Source of the DNA: Calditrichia bacterium
GTDB lineage: Bacteria; Calditrichota; Calditrichia; RBG-13-44-9; J075
Assembly: GCA_965227145.1 (NCBI GenBank)
Contig: OZ245730.1
Span: forward strand, 3,086,187-3,150,186
Length of the DNA stretch: 64,000 bases
Direction of reading: 5' to 3'
The notes under the pieces were generated by a model, which was given only the letters and a program-made list of their open reading frames with translations, searched no databases and was not told where the DNA came from. This document shows positions 17,184 through 52,350 of the stretch, piece by piece. The translations under genes and the position numbers were made by a program. Position 1 is the stretch's first letter. Every line of letters starts with the position of its first letter.

Positions 17184-18608
17184 TCAATAGGCGCCTTTGC
17201 CGAGGAAAGCCACCGGAATCGTTTCAAACAGGATTTCCATATCAAAGAAAATGGACTGGTTTTCGATATAATAGAGATCCAGCAAACACATTTCCTCGAA
17301 CGAGAGATTACTTCTGCCGGAAATTTGCCACAGTCCGGTGATACCCGGCTTGGTGTTCCCGCGCTTGGCATACCAATCGTAATTCACTTTGCCATTTTTG
17401 ATTTTGTTAAAATCATTGATCGGCAAGGGACGCGGTCCAACGATGCTCATATCCCCTTGTAATACATTAATAAACTGGGGAATTTCATCCAGGCTGTATT
17501 TGCGGAGGAATTTGCCGACCGGCGTTACCCGGGGATCATCCTTCATTTTGAACAATGCGCCGTTGGTTTCGTTATTTGCCCAGATTTTATCTTTCATGTC
17601 ATCAGCATTATCATACATGGTGCGGAATTTATAGAACCAGAATTCCGGGCCGCCTTTATACAGCGAACGTCTTTGTTTGAAAAAAACAGGACCTTTTGAA
17701 GTTAAGCGGATCATCGCTGCAATAATGGCACCGGCCGGAATGAGTAAAATACTGGCAAAAGCCAGAATAATTAAATCGAAGACCCGCTTCAGTCGGGACT
17801 GCCACACCGGCACCCGCAAACGCCGGCTGTCCGTGGATAGCGGCACGCCGGTAACATCTTTTACCTTGATCTGGTTCATCAGTTTTTTAACATCCGGCGA
17901 CACCATTTTAACCGCAACCCCAAAATGTTCGCAGGCTTTGCGGATCGGTTCGTATTTCTTTTCCAGCATGGAATCGCTGACAATAAACACTTTGTCGATG
18001 CCGTGTTCCGGGATAATCGTGTCCACATCGTGGTATTTACCGATAATATACGGCGCAATTTCGGGATGGTGATGGGGCGTGCCGTTGGCGATAAACCCGC
18101 GCAAATCGTAATAATCACCGTATGCATCCGTCAGGATTTCGGTAAAGCGCAGGGCAGACAGATCAGTGCCAACCACCAGTATCCGCTGATTGCCAAATCC
18201 CTTATTAAACAGGCGCAGGTTGATTTTGTGCATCAGGGTGTGCATGACTTCCAGAATGATGTATTGGGACATCAGAAAGATAATTACCACGCCTCGGGAA
18301 AACTCATGTCCCTTGATCAAGAACAGATAGGACATCGTGAGCAGACCGAGGTAGTAGGTCATTATTTTGAGGTGCTGTTTCTGATGCAAAATCGGGCTGC
18401 TGTAAACACTCCGGTAAAGCCCGAGGATAGCGGCCAGCGGGAAAAAGATCAGGTTGACAAATAGCCAGGGCTCAAAATATCTGGCTAAGGGTTCATCCAA
18501 TTCCGGGAAACGAAGATACAGCGCCAGCCGGAAAGCAGCGTTGATCATGATGAAATCGCCAATCATGACGAGCATCGTATAGACGAATCGCCAATTCCGT
18601 TTTAGCAT
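17184..18608 (-). CDS. Initiating polyprenyl-phosphate sugar phosphotransferase (WbaP/CpsE-type bacterial sugar transferase)
   Basis: 474 aa; N-terminal TMs and C-terminal catalytic domain (KRVFDLI, FFKQRR, YKFRTM, RVTPVGKFLRKYSLDEIPQFINVLQGDMSIVGPRP). Confidence 0.9.
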   Translation of the reverse strand: MLKRNWRFVYTMLVMIGDFIMINAAFRLALYLRFPELDEPLARYFEPWLFVNLIFFPLAAILGLYRSVYSSPILHQKQHLKIMTYYLGLLTMSYLFLIKGHEFSRGVVIIFLMSQYIILEVMHTLMHKINLRLFNKGFGNQRILVVGTDLSALRFTEILTDAYGDYYDLRGFIANGTPHHHPEIAPYIIGKYHDVDTIIPEHGIDKVFIVSDSMLEKKYEPIRKACEHFGVAVKMVSPDVKKLMNQIKVKDVTGVPLSTDSRRLRVPVWQSRLKRVFDLIILAFASILLIPAGAIIAAMIRLTSKGPVFFKQRRSLYKGGPEFWFYKFRTMYDNADDMKDKIWANNETNGALFKMKDDPRVTPVGKFLRKYSLDEIPQFINVLQGDMSIVGPRPLPINDFNKIKNGKVNYDWYAKRGNTKPGITGLWQISGRSNLSFEEMCLLDLYYIENQSIFFDMEILFETIPVAFLGKGAY

Positions 18609-19808
18609 GAGGTTAATCCTGTTTCAGTAAAGATTGTTGAATTTAGATTACAGACACTATTTTCGGCAGTTAAACTGCGGACTTTAATGATTGAAAATAT
18701 TTGTATTTTCGCGCCGCTTATTAAACTTTTTTTGCAACAGAGGCGCAAGGGCTCACAGAGAAAGGTTCATGAAGCCCGTGTTAATTATACTGCAATTGGT
18801 CATTACCATTATTTACATCAATATTAAACCAGATTCCTGCTCCGAAGGAGCGCCTTTGGCGCGGATGCAGGAATCTCCTGCTCAAAAAGTTATTTAGTGC
18901 AATCTCTCAGGTCTTCCGTGATGCTGCGGCTAAAATGCAAAACATCAGTTGTTAAAAAACAAGCCGACAGTATAACACATTAACCTTATATTGCGCAATT
19001 TCTTTTTAAATGCTAATGTTACCGGTCATTTGTGCTGACAGGATAACAGGATTTACCGGATCGTAAGTGCAGATACAAATTTAATTGGTTCTCTGACAAT
19101 TTTTGTGGAATAAGTTCTGTTACTGCGCCAGCCTGAGCCCTTCGGTAAGCTCAGGATAAACTGCGTCGAAGGTCGTCATTCGATAAAAAACAGAGGCTTT
19201 CCCGCAAAGCGGGACTCAGCATGACAGAATATGCATGTTTTAGCTGACTTCCACACTATTTGTCAAAGAACGATTAAATTAATATTTTCAATGTAAGGCT
19301 GAGGGAATCGAAGGACAATTCATAATGATAGCGGCTTCGACTTCGCTCAGCCTGACAAGATTTACATTTTAATTAGCAAATTATGGTAGTGTCACTATTT
19401 AATTGATATTTCAACATACAGATGCTTCGTCTCCCGGCTTTCCGGGAAAGAATCTCGTCTTTATGGTGTATCAAATCACTCAATATCTACCACTACCCAA
19501 ATTATTTCTGTCAAGGCACTTATGATGTTTATCAAATTGAGTCTTGTCATTTCCGAATCAACCAAAAACCGTGATATTTTGATGATACAATCAACAATTT
19601 ATTTTCTTGATCATCATGCATATCCTGTCAAACAAACCACTTCCATGTTTTGATTTGCGACTCAAAATACATCATTATATAGGTGCATTTGTGACTGGCT
19701 TAACAGATCGGCAAAATTCATTATATATTCCCATTTTTGTTGATATTCTTCCGTAAATAAAAATCCCCGCCATGAATATGACGGGGCTGGAAAGAACATC
19801 CCCCCTGC

Positions 19809-20005
19809 GCTGCCATTAAGTTAAGGATCAAAGTGGGCAGTTTTGTCACCCTGAGCTAAGTGTCACCCTGAGCACAGTGTCACCCTGAGCGCAGTCGAAG
19901 GGTCGATGGGTCGATGGGTCGATGGGTCGATGGGTAATTTTGCCGTGCATATATCATGGTTCGACTTCGCTCACCATGACAGGTTGTGCTTAACTTAATG
20001 GCAGC
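19809..20005. repeat. 17-bp perfect inverted repeat pair (GCTGCCATTAAGTTAAG / CTTAACTTAATGGCAGC) bracketing a 163-bp repeat-filled segment
   Basis: Arms at 19809..19825 and 19989..20005, read directly. Confidence 0.8.
19845..19936. repeat. Tandem repeat tract: 3 x 16-bp GTCACCCTGAGCnnnn units then (GGGTCGATG)x4
   Basis: Direct reading; reverse-complement copy with 8 units at 22195..22366. Confidence 0.85.
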
Positions 20006-20012
20006 ATTTCAA

Positions 20013-20066
20013 AGGAGGGGATGTCTGATTTCCCCCTTCGAAGGGGGATTAAGGGGGATGTTATCC
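20013..20066. repeat. Solo copy of the palindromic element family (core CCCCCTTCGAAGGGGG)
   Basis: GGGGATGTCTGATTTCCCCCTTCGAAGGGGGATTAAGGGGGATG; same core as arrays at 50.7 and 51.9-52.35 kb. Confidence 0.8.
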
Positions 20067-20107
20067 TGCGGAACGCATATACGCGTTCTCTGCAAATGTT
20101 ATGTATC

Positions 20108-21037
20108 TTACGGCTGCTGGGCCAGATACCATTGATAGGTTTGGGTAATGCCATCCCGTAAAGAGATACCGGCTTTCCACCCCAAACCATTCAGTTTGGA
20201 GACATCCAGCAGTTTGCGGGGCGTGCCGTCCGGTTTGGATGTGTCAAACGTTAGTTCACCGCTAAAACCAACGATATCCTTAATCAGCAGCGCCAGGTCT
20301 TTTATTGCGATATCCTCACCCACCCCGATATTGACAATCTCGCTATCTGCATAGTGCTGCATCAGATACACACAGGCATCCGCCAGATCATCCGCATGCA
20401 GGAATTCCCGTTTGGGTGAACCAGTCCCCCAGATTTCCACGGACGGTTTTCCGGCAAGTTTGGCTTCATGAAACTTGCGGATCAGCGCCGGCAGGACGTG
20501 GGAACTTTGCAGATCGAAATTATCGTTGGATCCATACAAATTGGTGGGCATCACCGAAATAAATGATGTGCCATACTGGCGATTAAAGGACTGGCAGGTT
20601 TTGATCCCGGCAATCTTGGCGATAGCGTAAGGCTCGTTGGTCGGTTCCAGCTTGCCGTCCAGCAAATGTTCTTCCTTCATCGGTTGCGGGGCGAATTTGG
20701 GATAAATACAGGAGCTACCCAAAAACAGCAGCTTTTTCACCCCGTTCCGGTAGCTGTGATGAATAATATTGGACTGGATCATCAGGTTATCGTAGATAAA
20801 ATCCGCCGGATAATCGTTATTGGCCAAAATGCCGCCCACTTTGGCGGCAGCCAAAAATACGTATTCCGGCTGCTCTTTTTCAAAGAAAGCCGCAACGGCT
20901 GCCTGATTCCGTAGATCAAGTTCTGCGGATCGTTTGAGCACCAGATTGTTAAATCCGTTTGATGCCAACCGCCGTGCTATGGCGGAGCCAACCAGACCGC
21001 GATGTCCGGCTATGTAGATTTTTGATGTTGTTTTCAT
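20108..21037 (-). CDS. fcl: GDP-L-fucose synthase
   Basis: 309 aa; extended-SDR motifs [11 protein letters not shown], YxxxK (YAIAKIAG), and Fcl-typical NLYGSNDNF. Confidence 0.9.
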
Positions 21038-21040
21038 GTT

Positions 21041-21092
21041 GGGTGTATGGGTTAGTGGGTGAATGGGTTGATGGGTTATGGGTTGATGGGGA
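21041..21092. repeat. Simple repeat tract (GGGTnnATG-like nonamers)
   Basis: GGGTGTATGGGTTAGTGGGTGAATGGGTTGATGGGTTATGGGTTGATGGGG. Confidence 0.8.
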
Positions 21093-21525: not shown

Positions 21526-21750
21526 TTACAATTGTTTCAGGAGACTGTCATAATCGGCGTGGGAACATACCCAGAACCAAGGGATGTAATCCGTTTTTAT
21601 TACACCAACTGCCCGGTAATCCCTGCTTATTCGCACGGAATATACCGGCAGACTTGAATGAATTCTCTTAAATCGGAGTCCGGGATACCAGGGATCTTTA
21701 CGGAATACAGCATAAGCTACTTTTGCCTGTTTTTTTATTTCTGCAGGCAA
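21526..21750 (-). CDS. RelE/ParE-superfamily toxin-like protein (type II TA toxin, putative)
   Basis: 74 aa; VYSVRISRDYRAVGV...IPWFWVCSHADYD resembles the RelE/ParE beta-sheet core; sits just downstream of a small acidic ORF. Confidence 0.5.
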   Translation of the reverse strand: MPAEIKKQAKVAYAVFRKDPWYPGLRFKRIHSSLPVYSVRISRDYRAVGVIKTDYIPWFWVCSHADYDSLLKQL

Positions 21751-21792: not shown

Positions 21793-22014
21793 TCACAATT
21801 TGTCAATGTCCAGATGGGTCGCATTACCCTGTTCATCTTCTTCCAACGCTTCCAAAGCCAGCTTAGCCAATGCGTCTTCAGATTCAGCAAACTTTTTATC
21901 CCACAGTTTTTCCGAATCAATTTCATCAAGTATCCAACGCGCTAATGCATTTTGTTCGATTTCCGGAAGCCGGGACATTTTTTTAAACGCTTTTTCCAAT
22001 AAACGGGTCATCAT
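21793..22014 (-). CDS. Putative antitoxin partner of the RelE/ParE-like toxin
   Basis: 73 aa, acidic C-terminal half, directly upstream of and co-oriented with the toxin ORF (43-nt gap). Confidence 0.4.
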   Translation of the reverse strand: MMTRLLEKAFKKMSRLPEIEQNALARWILDEIDSEKLWDKKFAESEDALAKLALEALEEDEQGNATHLDIDKL

Positions 22015-22107: not shown

Positions 22108-22166
22108 AGCTTTTAGCTTTTGGCTTTTAGCTTTTGGCTTTTGGCTTTTGGCTTTTGGCTTTTGGC
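22108..22166. repeat. (GGCTTT/AGCTTT)n hexamer tract
   Basis: AGCTTTTAGCTTTTGGCTTTTAGCTTTTGGCTTTTGGCTTTTGGCTTTTGGC. Confidence 0.85.
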
Positions 22167-22194: not shown

Positions 22195-22366
22195 CTTTGC
22201 CGCTTCGACCCTTCGACCCTTCGACTGCGCTCAGGGTGACACTGCGCTCAGGGTGACACTTGCTCAGGGTGACACTGCGCTCAGGGTGACACTTGCTCAG
22301 GGTGACACTTGCTCAGGGTGACAATCGCTCAGGGTGACACTGCGCTCAGGGTGACACTGCGCTCAG
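22195..22366. repeat. Tandem repeat tract: (CCTTCGAC)x3 then 8 x 16-bp GCTCAGGGTGACAnnn units; inverted copy of 19845..19936
   Basis: Direct reading; reverse complement gives GTCACCCTGAGC units as in the 19.85-kb tract. Confidence 0.85.
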
Positions 22367-22470
22367 GACAAGCCTTTTACTTTTTCCCTTCGGCTTCGCT
22401 CAGGACGAGCCTTTTTACTTTTTACTTTTTCCCTTCGGCTTCGCTCAGGACGAGCCTTTTTACTTATTTC
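22357..22470. repeat. ~48-bp direct repeat x2 (CGCTCAGGACRAGCC-TTTTTACT-TTTTCCCTTCGGCTT) just 3' of gmd
   Basis: Direct reading. Confidence 0.7.
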
Positions 22471-23565
22471 ACTGCTTCATCTGTTTTTCAATCTTGGCCA
22501 ACCGGTAATCTGCGACAATCATAATATCGACCAGTTCCCTGAAGGTGGTTTGGGGTTGCCAGCCGAGATGTTTTTTGGCTTTAGCCGGATCACCGATCAG
22601 CAAATCCACCTCGGTGGGACGGTAATAACGCGGGTCAATGGCCACAACCGTTTGCCCGACGCGAAAGGCCGGAGAGCGTTCCAGTCCCGGCAATTTGGGA
22701 TCATCGATATTGGCAATCACCGCATATTCTTCGCTACCGTTGCCCTGCCACTGCAAGGTTACCCCGAAGCCATCAAACGAGGCTTCGATAAATTCCCGAA
22801 CAGAATTGGTCTGTCCGGTTGCCAGCACAAAATCATCCGGTTCGCTTTGCTGGAGCATGCGCCACATACCTTCCACATATTCCGGTGCGTAGCCCCAATC
22901 GCGTTTGGCATCGAGATTTCCCATAAACAATTGTCCTGCTCGCCGATAGCCATCCGGGTAATCGCCCGGGTGATCTTGCGGGTCACAAAAGTTTCCCCGC
23001 GCCGGGGCGATTCGTGGTTAAACAAAATCCCGTTGCAGGCAAAGAGGTTATAGGCTTCGCGATAGTTCACGGTGATCCAGAAGGCATACATTTTGGCAAC
23101 GCCGTAAGGGCTGCGGGGATAAAACGGGGTGCTTTCCGTCTGCGGCACTTCCTGCACTTTGCCGTAAAGCTCCGATGTAGAAGCCTGGTAAAACCGCGCT
23201 TTGATACCGGTTTCTTTAATCGCATCGAGAAAACGCAGCGTGCCGACAGCATCCACTTCCGCAGTATATTCCGGCACCTGGAAAGAAACACCGACGTGAC
23301 TCTGGGCGGCCAGATTATAAATTTCATCCGGCTGCACCTTTTCAAGAATGCGGTTGAGGTTGGAGGAATCGGTCAAGTCCCCGTAATGCAGCACCATTTT
23401 GCGGGGCTGTTCGTGGGGATCCTGGTAAATATGTTCAATACGCTGGGTGTTAAAATTGCTGGCGCGACGGACAATGCCGTGCACCTGATAGCCTTTTTCA
23501 ATCAGCAGTTCAGTTAAATAACTGCCATCCTGACCGGTTATGCCGGTAATGAGTGCCTTTTTCAT
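22469..23565 (-). pseudogene. gmd: GDP-mannose 4,6-dehydratase, reading frame broken by an apparent 1-nt deletion (or sequencing error)
   Basis: Track ORFs 22759..23592 and 22469..22930 are the N- and C-terminal parts of one Gmd ([31 protein letters not shown] / [12 protein letters not shown]). Frames switch at 22925..22936, where GACAATTG would read through as GACAAATTG. Likely start is the second Met (MKKALITG) at 23565. Confidence 0.8.
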
Positions 23566-23718
23566 TGATGCCTCATGATTTTCTTTTGCCATGAATATTC
23601 ACGAATGGTCACGAATATCTGTAATTTTTGTCTTGAAATCAATGCTTGTATGAATTGACAGATGTCAATCATTGTTTGGGTAAATGGGTGTATGGGTAAA
23701 TGAGTGAATGGGTATAAG

Positions 23719-24063: not shown

Positions 24064-24393
24064 GTTGGTCGGTTGGGTGAAATGATTTGGCTACAATAAT
24101 GGAACATCTACGATGTAATCTTGTGTATGGTCAATTGTCAATTGTCGATGGTCGATGGTCAATTCCGAGTTCCCCGCCGCGAAGCGGTTCCTTCGGAAAA
24201 GGAGCATCTTCGGCGTCGAGTTTCGAGTTTCCGATTCCATCTGGAGCAAAACTACCGCAAAAATAAACCAATAACCTATATAATGAAAAAACCCTGCTGC
24301 CGGGTGTACTCCCGGTCGATCAGGGTTATGTTGTTGCTAGTGAAACGTCTTAAACAATAGGGAAATGGAACAACCCAGTATTAATGGATAACT

Positions 24394-50692: not shown

Positions 50693-50812
50693 AAGAAACA
50701 TCCCCCTTCGAAGGGGGAAATCTTGTTAGCCCCTCTTTGAAGAGGGGTTGGGGAGATGTAATCTTAAGAGACATCCCCCTTTATCCCCCTTTGAAGGGGG
50801 AAATTTTAAGAA
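50693..50812. repeat. Palindromic element family, ~1.5 units, immediately upstream of ORF 50909..51646
   Basis: AAGAAACATCCCCCTTCGAAGGGGG...CCCCTCTTTGAAGAGGGGTTGGGGAGATG... Confidence 0.85.
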
Positions 50813-51892: not shown

Positions 51893-52350
51893 TTGTCCCC
51901 TGATAGACATCCCTCTGTGTCCCCTTAAGAAACATCCCCCTTTGTCCCCCTTCGAAGGGGGAAAGTTGTTTAGCCCCTCTTTGAAGAGGGGTTGGGGAGA
52001 TGTTTCTTTTGCCTTTTGAAACAGCTTCTTTTTATCACCCTAAGAGACATCCCCCTGTGTCCCCCTTCGAAGGGGGAAAGTTGTTTAGCCCCTCTTTGAA
52101 GAGGGGTTTGGGGAGATGTTTCTTCAGCTTTTTGATACAGCTTCTTTTTATCCTCTAAGAAACATCCCCCTTTGTCCCCCTTCGAAGGGGGAATCTTTTT
52201 AGCCCCTCTTTGAAGAGGGGTTGGGGAGATGTTTCTTTTGCTTTTTGAAACAGCTTCTTTTTATCCTCTAAGAGACATCCCCCTGTGTCCCCCTTCGAAG
52301 GGGGAGTCTTTTTTGCCCCTCTTTGAAGAGGGGTTGGGGAGATGTTTTCT
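51893..52350. repeat. Tandem array of ~113-bp palindrome-containing units (4 units, alternating A/B variants)
   Basis: Each unit: AAGARACATCCCC...CCCCCTTCGAAGGGGG (perfect 16-bp palindrome)...CCCCTCTTTGAAGAGGGG (hairpin)...GGGGAGATGTTTCTT (inverted copy of the unit start). Unit starts near 51929, 52044, 52156, 52270. Confidence 0.9.

Follow-up and report, generated by a model that had tools for sequence, protein, structure and literature searches.

An inverted-repeat segment in a polysaccharide-synthesis locus of a Calditrichia bacterium, very probably a miniature derivative of an IS4-family insertion sequence

The inverted repeat and its position in the polysaccharide locus

We analyzed a stretch of 64,000 nucleotides from the genome of a Calditrichia bacterium (GenBank assembly GCA_965227145.1, contig OZ245730.1, positions 3,086,187 to 3,150,186 of the forward strand), hereafter called the window, with positions counted from its first letter. 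Proteins encoded in it are identical to proteins of Calditrichia (Calditrichota) assemblies or fall into the same 90%-identity clusters. The window carries a long minus-strand polysaccharide-synthesis cluster that is interrupted by a 1499-bp spacer (18609-20107) between the gene of an initiating sugar transferase and an epimerase gene called fcl, the product of which is taken to be a GDP-fucose synthase. Within this spacer lies a 199-bp segment (19808-20006) that ends in short perfect inverted repeats and that is very probably a miniature inverted-repeat transposable element (MITE), a non-coding and non-autonomous derivative of an IS4-family insertion sequence (IS). The initial annotation, made from the sequence alone, had placed the segment in a region free of open reading frames (ORFs) upstream of the sugar transferase. 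The region is intergenic as described, but the segment sits 102 bp 3' of the fcl stop codon and ~1.2 kb from the transferase start. Because an intrinsic-terminator-like hairpin lies downstream of the segment on the transcribed strand, between it and the sugar transferase, the segment appears to belong to the 3' untranslated region (UTR) of fcl and is not placed like a promoter of the transferase; lying between the fcl stop codon and the terminator-like site, it should therefore be co-transcribed. The terminator-like site is conserved in J042, the related Calditrichia genome described below, and shows 2-3 base differences in a second related contig, L125. The coordinates of the features discussed here are collected in Table 1.

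The left arm, GCTGCCATTAAGTTAAG, occupies 19809-19825 and the right arm, its exact reverse complement, 19989-20005; the two are 100% complementary over 17 bp and are spaced by 163 nt filled with 17-nt and 8-nt tandem repeats, in agreement with the earlier description. An outer symmetry (CATCCCC/GGGGATG) that had been reported as extending the arms is also present but is not contiguous with them, being separated by gaps of 4 and 12 nt; it is formed by ACATCCCC (19797-19804) and GGGGATGT (20018-20025), which are the stem of the palindrome hosting the element. We surveyed the window for perfect inverted repeats of at least 15 bp with separate arms at most 400 nt apart, and found this pair to be the only one of at least 17 bp other than self-palindromic tandem-repeat units, while 30 mononucleotide shuffles of the window yielded no perfect inverted repeat of at least 17 bp. 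When up to 3 mismatches were allowed, the 17-mer had only two sites in the 64-kb window, namely the two arms (0.18 sites expected). With its small size (below ~600 bp) and its lack of any coding capacity, the interior consisting of tandem repeats and hairpins and no ORF of at least 40 amino acids lying wholly inside the element, the segment has the anatomy of a MITE. Rfam gave no match anywhere in the window at gathering thresholds, and with relaxed thresholds only a chance-level hit to IS009 elsewhere in the spacer (18.7 bits, for a threshold of 117).

The 8-nt array and the last 17-nt unit together form a hairpin, GTCACCC-TGAGCGCAGTCGAA-GGGTCGA, with a loop of the type TGAGC-N-TCGAA, and the second small hairpin module (19954-19981) pairs with 19878-19899 in the predicted RNA fold. 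The 17-nt unit recurs 8.7 times in the opposite orientation at 22224-22367. This recurrence is part of a tandem-repeat block at 22203-22470, composed of CTTCGACC (2.9 copies), then ACTGCGCTCAGGGTGAC (8.7 copies) and then a 45-nt unit (2-2.7 copies), of which the first two units are the units of the element's interior in inverted form (96% identity over 71 nt); the block is not bounded by terminal inverted repeats (TIRs). Since the same units occur there without TIRs, the interior filler appears to be a local type of repeat and not a part of the transposon.

Relatives of the terminal repeats in other genomes

We scanned one genome per species for exact copies of the 17-mer, obtaining at least 119 loci, the listed matches covering genomes outside Calditrichota. 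The initial annotation had named many copies genome-wide as a mark of a MITE rather than of a switch; across other genomes, many copies were indeed found. Among the matches listed, most were in Methylococcales, Legionellales and Beggiatoaceae/Thiotrichales, with others in Geobacter, Sulfuricellaceae, Verrucomicrobiota and further groups; the few matches in Firmicutes are probably due to chance. For 56 of the 123 occurrences among these matches, a reverse-complement partner (at most 3 mismatches) was located 17-474 nt downstream. Different genomes have different sequences between the arms, the interiors being mutually unrelated and often made of REP-like hairpins. The interior of the window element had no meaningful similarity to the interiors of the 119 family loci (a single match of 28 nt, E = 0.008).

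The consensus of the family ends reads C(A/G)CTGCCATTAAGTTAAG ... CTTAACTTAATGGCAG(T/C)G. Of 46 family copies, 34 have a C immediately before the 17-mer, and the dinucleotide that follows GGCAG in these 46 copies is TG (34 copies), CG (8) or another one (4), and never CA. To define target duplications we fixed the register as (11 nt) C-GCTGCC...GGCAG-TG (11 nt) and compared the flanks of each pair, which gave 11-bp direct repeats (at least 9 of 11 positions matching) in 14 of 46 pairs, compared with 1.2% of randomly re-paired flanks; the picture was the same when the register was not fixed. The reconstructed targets are rich in palindromes: on average 6.7 of 15 possible pairs are complementary, versus 3.8 for random sequence, and many targets are palindromes whose apex is formed by the duplicated 11 bp, for instance cgttccc-ACGCAGAGCGT-gggaacg, GGGTGAAGCCC and CCCTCCGGGGG. 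On the contig of a Legionella metagenome-assembled genome (MAG; L121, positions 11-650), at least three tandem copies of a MITE-containing unit follow one another with a period of 210 bp, which suggests tandem amplification of the element.

The same ends delimit longer elements that encode a transposase. In Methylomarinum sp. Ch1-1 (CP157743.1; L122), a 1401-bp element with the ends CACTGCCATTAAGTTAAG and TTTAACTTAATGGCAGTG carries an intact transposase of 430 amino acids, which matches PF01609 and the NCBIfam model NF033592 ("IS4 family transposase") with 174 bits for a cutoff of 115. It is flanked by a perfect 11-bp duplication, ACGGTCTCCGT, located at the apex of the hairpin gttccc-ACGGTCTCCGT-gggaat, and its end CACTGCCATTAAGTTAAG is identical to the left arm in the window at 17 of 18 positions. 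A second element (L123) has an intact 450-amino-acid DDE transposase between ends CAATGCCATTAAATTAAG and an 11-bp duplication, CCCACCGGAAC. A third, a decayed copy of 1.76 kb in Ca. Thiomargarita nelsonii (L076), has ends CAATGCCATTAAGTTAAG and a frameshifted transposase that keeps the IS4 signature Y-2-R-3-E-6-K and matches Pfam DDE_Tnp_1; using this transposase as a query we retrieved 1077 relatives, many of which are intact at 420-450 amino acids. The window ends match those of L123 and L076 at 15-16 of 18 positions. The segment thus shares its TIRs with autonomous, transposase-encoding elements, from which it differs in being 199 bp long and without a gene, whereas L122 and its relatives L123 and L076 are 1.4-1.8 kb long with a transposase of 430-450 amino acids, and in lacking an intact target duplication, whereas L122 and L123 each have one of 11 bp (11 of 11 positions), at a hairpin apex in the case of L122.

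We also considered that the family might include gene-carrying cassettes of the MIC type, and found no evidence for this: where partners of the 17-mer lie 0.9-4 kb apart, they enclose mostly unrelated host genes (a glutathione-S-transferase-like ORF, a transketolase) and have no duplications, and for TIR pairs 1.4-2.7 kb apart neither duplications nor gene cargo were found. One such case is L048 (6144-7911, a Methylobacter MAG), in which two TIRs 1.75 kb apart contain an ORF that by eye is glutathione-S-transferase-like along with others; with flanks matching at 4 of 11 positions, it is probably a pair of separate half-elements and not a mobile cassette.

One member of the family is already in the literature, namely the hupL MITE of Ca. 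T. nelsonii. It was reported in 2016 to have an inverted repeat of 19 bp that shares one base with a direct repeat of 10 bp; BLASTN matched it on 260 of 439 contigs, whereas a parental IS was not found (PMC4853749). Its sequence, given in the supplement of that paper, reads ATCCAAACAGT-CAATGCCATTAAGTTAAG ... CTTAACTTAATGGCATTG-ATCCAAACAGT (PMC4853749). The ends CAATGCCATTAAGTTAAG and CTTAACTTAATGGCATTG match the window ends CGCTGCCATTAAGTTAAG and CTTAACTTAATGGCAGCA at 16 of 18 positions in each arm, and the direct repeat ATCCAAACAGT counts as 11 bp in our register, corresponding to the published 10 bp plus the base in common with the inverted repeat. Both elements are short, non-coding and rich in internal hairpins, with unrelated interiors; they differ in their hosts (a gammaproteobacterium for the hupL MITE, Calditrichota here), and in the window copy the duplication has decayed and one terminal dinucleotide is altered. 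An origin from a PD-(D/E)XK (YhgA-like) element was suggested for the hupL MITE (PMC4853749). The evidence here points instead to an IS4-family DDE transposase. The RepeatModeler family-325 consensus of that study has the same end at its start and then runs on into the transposase gene seen in L076. A literature search found no paper besides PMC4853749 that names the hupL MITE or its arm sequence, and a link to an IS4-family parent seems to be absent from the published record. Identical ends and the same 11-bp duplication now connect the hupL MITE family, which had no known parent when it was published, to an IS4-family DDE transposase, and the range of the family extends beyond Thiomargarita to Methylococcales, Legionella, Geobacter and, as a new phylum, Calditrichota. 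These results, including the link to an IS4 parent, will be unsurprising to specialists of insertion sequences.

Within the IS4 family, we compared the ends with those of the IS231 subgroup, of which IS231A, from the Bacillus cereus group, has the TIR CATGCCCATCAACTTAAGAA and the target GGG(N)5CCC. The family ends agree with 7 of the 8 conserved positions of the subgroup pattern CAT-------AA--TAA, position 3 being C or A instead of T, and the 11-bp duplication falls within the 10-12 bp of its direct repeats (PMC2266710, Table 1). For the IS4 family in general this length is ~10 bp. The subgroup is also known for a marked insertion specificity (PMC2266710) and for the MIC231 elements, which are non-autonomous derivatives with variable content between conserved ends (references cited in PMC2266710). 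The transposase, however, is not close to that of IS231: the best named relative in a tblastn search of plasmids belongs to the ISPa1635 family (~32% identity), and Bacillus was outside the ten most frequent genera among the plasmid transposase matches. The putative parent is assigned at the level of the IS4 family only, NF033592 being a general IS4 model.

This distribution bears on two further explanations of the repeat. The first is that it has no mobile-element origin and was formed on the spot, either by chance or through a local duplication followed by an inversion. Palindromes and tandem repeats do indeed fill the spacer, and the interior units are found again 2.2 kb away in inverse orientation, as this explanation would have it. 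But the identical 17-mer, together with its partner, its terminal bases and the 11-bp duplications, recurs at more than 100 loci of other phyla and at the ends of transposase-bearing elements, and shuffled sequence contained no perfect 17-bp inverted repeat; judged from these comparisons, an in-place origin seems already effectively refuted, and we give it practically no chance. The second is an integron attC site, which was considered for the order GTTAAG...CTTAAC. In attC the core sites are ordered RYYYAAC...GTTRRRY, and such sites are not known to be conserved between hosts as distant as these; here the order is reversed, and the candidate was rejected on inspection.

The loop type found inside the element is a subject of its own. 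Hairpins with a TGAGC-N3-6-TCGAA loop and variable stems occur in the window at 19336, 19886, 19960, 21501 and 22220, two of them inside the element; this is a ~15-fold enrichment (5 versus 0.32 expected), with all sites within 19.3-22.3 kb. The same loop is present in 4 of 47 gammaproteobacterial MITE interiors (L019, L038, L078 and L116), making up the entire 33-nt interior of L078, and it is ~30-fold more frequent per kb in MITE interiors than in the whole family loci that were fetched. The loop is a repeat motif common to different phyla.

The insertion site in related strains and the reading of the element

To compare strains at the site, we used Calditrichia contigs that reach the spacer from one or both sides. 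In J042 (L126), ~95% identical to the window over a length of 6.6 kb, the element occupies the same site, and its orientation agrees as well, the two sequences being collinear through the asymmetric interior. Its interior measures 180 nt versus 163 nt in the window as a result of changes in repeat copy number, with about one 17-nt unit more and one 8-nt unit fewer; the interior is lineage-specific filler that is still changing by slippage. The J042 end that matches position 19808 is the canonical CACTGCC (GGCAGTG), and the other end has the same bases as in the window. In the window, an A-to-G change in the terminal dinucleotide makes the repeat a perfect 17-mer. The left flank of J042 reads CATCCCCCCTTTCGAAAGGG, then CACTGCC, and its flanks TTTCGAAAGGG and TTTCAAAGGAG match at 8 of 11 positions. 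Removing the element and one copy of the duplication from J042 in silico leaves a 28-bp palindrome, ACATCCCCCCTTTCGAAAGGGGGGATGT, which belongs to the TCCCCCTTCGAAGGGGGA repeat family. Palindromes of this family are also found elsewhere in the window, at 20031-20048 and in 113-nt repeats at 51926-52347. The latter form a tandem array of 3.7 copies in which the palindromes TCCCCCTTCGAAGGGGGA and CCCCTCTTTGAAGAGGGG are bracketed by AACATCCCCC and GGGGAGATGTT; further sites of the insertion-target palindrome family are located at 50697-50804 and 20027-20062.

Other strains lack the element. L125, which spans the site, has no TIR at up to 3 mismatches, so the element is present in some related strains (the window and J042) and absent from another; L209, L210 and L212, which reach the site from the sugar-transferase side only, have no TIR match either. 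At the same palindrome cluster, L125, L209 and L212 carry a different IS of ~1.2 kb with perfect 19-bp ends GGCAGGGCTGTTAAGTTCT (~1120-2335 in L125, 108-1230 in L212, 1-120 in L209). It looks ISAs1-like and encodes DDE_Tnp_1_assoc and DDE_Tnp_1 genes, which show signs of decay in L125 and in L212 are divided between two ORFs. Because haplotypes carry either the MITE or this other IS, the stretch from the fcl stop codon to the terminator appears to be an insertion hotspot that tolerates very different contents. In the same spacer, a ~530-bp stretch (~19061-19592) with weak inverted repeats near its ends is present in the window and J042 and absent from the L125, L209, L210, L212 and L214 haplotype. 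Most contigs from further Calditrichia strains end less than 1 kb upstream of the sugar transferase, short of the site. Exact look-ups of the fcl and glycosyltransferase proteins gave no record. We also searched metagenomes: an exact 26-mer spanning TIR and interior had no matches in JGI metagenomes, a search with the fcl protein returned closest relatives of 75% identity and yielded neither an empty site nor a flipped allele, and the Logan contigs carrying the sugar transferase are short and end before the element.

The reading of the segment as a MITE, which we hold with high confidence, is based on the identity of its TIRs with those of autonomous elements, on the 11-bp duplications found across the family and on presence or absence between strains. 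Where the initial annotation had left a choice between an invertible switch and a MITE, the MITE is retained, the arms being the TIRs of a transposase-bearing IS that makes 11-bp duplications and has many short derivatives, the hupL MITE among them, and the switch is not supported. From the anatomy of the family and by analogy with other cut-and-paste elements of the IS4 family (PMC2266710), we infer that the element was mobilized in trans by cut-and-paste chemistry: a DDE transposase encoded elsewhere would bind and cleave at the arms and would cut the element out at its terminal C(A/G)...(T/C)G and insert it into an 11-bp staggered cut, thereby duplicating 11 bp of the target. The preferred target would be the apex of a short palindrome, here a local palindrome of the TCCCCCTT(T)CGAA(A)GGGGGA family in the 3' UTR of fcl, between the stop codon and the terminator. 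The tendency of the family to insert at palindrome apexes helps to explain why nested palindromes pile up in the intergenic spacers of these genomes and why assemblies break there. The window copy is probably a fossil that no longer moves, since 9 bp have been lost from one copy of the duplication, one end is CA (GGCAGCA), and no transposase gene is found in the 64 kb.

Several observations weigh against this reading. The window copy itself has no intact duplication (catcccccctg versus tttcaaaggag), as is likewise the case for ~70% of the family pairs, which have no clean duplication, and the match of 8 out of 11 positions is seen only in the J042 ortholog, in low-complexity palindromic sequence. 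No clean empty-site allele was recovered, the strains without the element being rearranged at the site, and there is a single copy in 64 kb. Finally, both 16-nt TIR cores are unchanged in two strains whereas the adjacent duplication has 2-3 changes, a constancy that is slightly odd for an old neutral relic.

The rival reading of an invertible switch holds that a recombinase flips the 163-bp segment between the 17-bp repeats and so toggles expression of the sugar transferase and capsule genes; the left junction of the flipped form, constructed in silico, would be CCTGCGCTGCCATTAAGTTAAGCACAACC. The geometry, with short perfect inverted repeats around ~160 bp inside a polysaccharide locus, is in its favor: known switches such as the Bacteroides capsular-polysaccharide promoters and fimS of E. 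coli likewise have short inverted repeats around ~160-300 bp in or beside a surface-polysaccharide locus. The Bacteroidota -7 promoter motif is TAnnTTTG, which TAATTTTG in the interior (19934-19941, plus strand) resembles; as a -7 box of this type, however, it was rejected, since a match is expected by chance with a probability of ~0.1 in 2 x 200 nt and it is directed away from the sugar transferase. Unlike the Bacteroides promoters and fimS, the segment has repeats that belong to the ends of a transposon family known here from numerous unrelated genomes and loci, a terminator-like hairpin and T-run between itself and the sugar transferase 1.2 kb off, and no internal promoter match, a scan covering sigma-70-like (not Bacteroidota-type) promoters having found none within 19809-20005. 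The proposed check for site-specific recombinase genes was negative within the window: Pfam profiles run against all non-nested ORFs of at least 150 amino acids and several smaller ones identified no domain of a tyrosine or serine recombinase, an integrase or a transposase. The window and J042, the two carrier assemblies, agree in orientation, and related strains lack the segment altogether. We therefore regard a switch as very improbable, and the repeat alone does not warrant annotating the polysaccharide cluster as phase-variable.

A different proposal is that the element has been exapted as RNA, its long hairpin in the 3' UTR of fcl stabilizing or processing the mRNA or aiding termination, which are roles reported for REP, ERIC and Correia elements. 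It lies in a suitable place, after the fcl stop codon (20108) and before the terminator-like site; for the minus-strand RNA covering 19790-20025 the predicted folding energy is -87.5 kcal/mol (z = -5.6 compared with shuffles); and both TIR cores are intact in two strains beside a decayed duplication. But any inverted-repeat element folds well, so that the fold is no evidence of function; moreover, related strains lack the element and accommodate a 1.2-kb IS in its position, the length of the interior differs between strains, and no Rfam family matches. We consider exaptation unlikely; a secondary role in transcript stability, though conceivable, finds no support, as related strains do without the element. 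We give equally little weight to a broader hypothesis, in which this IS4 lineage would select the apexes of extruded REP-like hairpins and so build nested palindromes, its miniatures would act as cross-phylum carriers of hairpin modules such as the TGAGC-N3-6-TCGAA loop, and the ends would be maintained by continued transposase activity or by the host's use of the 3' UTR hairpin, making the element more than a dead scar. It is compatible with the data because the TIR cores are unchanged beside a decayed duplication and the loop motif is enriched. The preferred reading is that the element is an ordinary copy of a mobile element, probably dead, and not a genetic switch.

Other features of the locus

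Table 1. Coordinates of the element, its flanks and the adjacent genes in the window
Feature	Position	Strand	Remarks
Initiating sugar transferase gene (Bac_transf)	17184-18608	-	
Intrinsic-terminator-like hairpin CCCCGTCATATTCATGGCGGGG, then T-run ATTTTTATTT	19755-19786	-	Hairpin 19786-19765, tail to ~19755
Left remnant of the target palindrome, CATCCCCCCTG	19797-19807	+	9 bp of one duplication copy deleted relative to J042
Left TIR, CGCTGCCATTAAGTTAAG	19808-19825	+	18 bp including the terminal C; 17 bp paired perfectly with the right arm
Non-coding interior	19826-19988		163 bp; lineage-specific; no ORF, no Rfam match
Tandem array of 17-nt unit TGTCACCCTGAGCACAG (TGTCACCCTGAGCNNAG)	19844-19895	+	3.1 copies
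Tandem array of 8-nt unit GTCGATGG	19894-19935	+	5.2 copies
Second small hairpin module, TCATGG-TTCGACTTCGCTCA-CCATGA	19954-19981	+	Opposite orientation
Right TIR, CTTAACTTAATGGCAGCA	19989-20006	+	Terminal dinucleotide CA; usually TG or CG in the family
Right remnant of the target duplication, TTTCAAAGGAG, then stem GGGGATGT	20007-20025	+	8 of 11 positions match J042 TTTCGAAAGGG
Epimerase gene called fcl (PF01370 family)	20108-21037	-	

Upstream of fcl, the gene for a GDP-mannose 4,6-dehydratase (minus strand, 22469-23592) is split into two overlapping ORFs, 22759-23592 (profile positions 1-211) and 22469-22930 (profile positions 213-332), which indicates a frameshift, due to a sequencing error or to the gene being a pseudogene; in J042 the orthologous gene is single and intact, with 365 amino acids. 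Between the dehydratase and fcl genes, within the polysaccharide cluster, we identified a ParE-like toxin ORF (21526-21750, minus strand; PF24732, E = 4e-12), preceded by a small minus-strand ORF without Pfam match (21793-22014) that may be a candidate antitoxin. Arrays rich in G and T (TGGGTTGATGGGTTA-like), which repeat every 8 and 16 nt, are located at 21040-21090 and 23673-23714, directly 5' of the fcl and dehydratase starts, yielding C/A-rich leaders on the coding strand (CCCATCAACCCATAACCC...). Heptamer arrays occur in neighboring spacers, with 8 copies of GCTTTTG at 22109-22166 and 5 copies of GTCAATT at 24130-24164.

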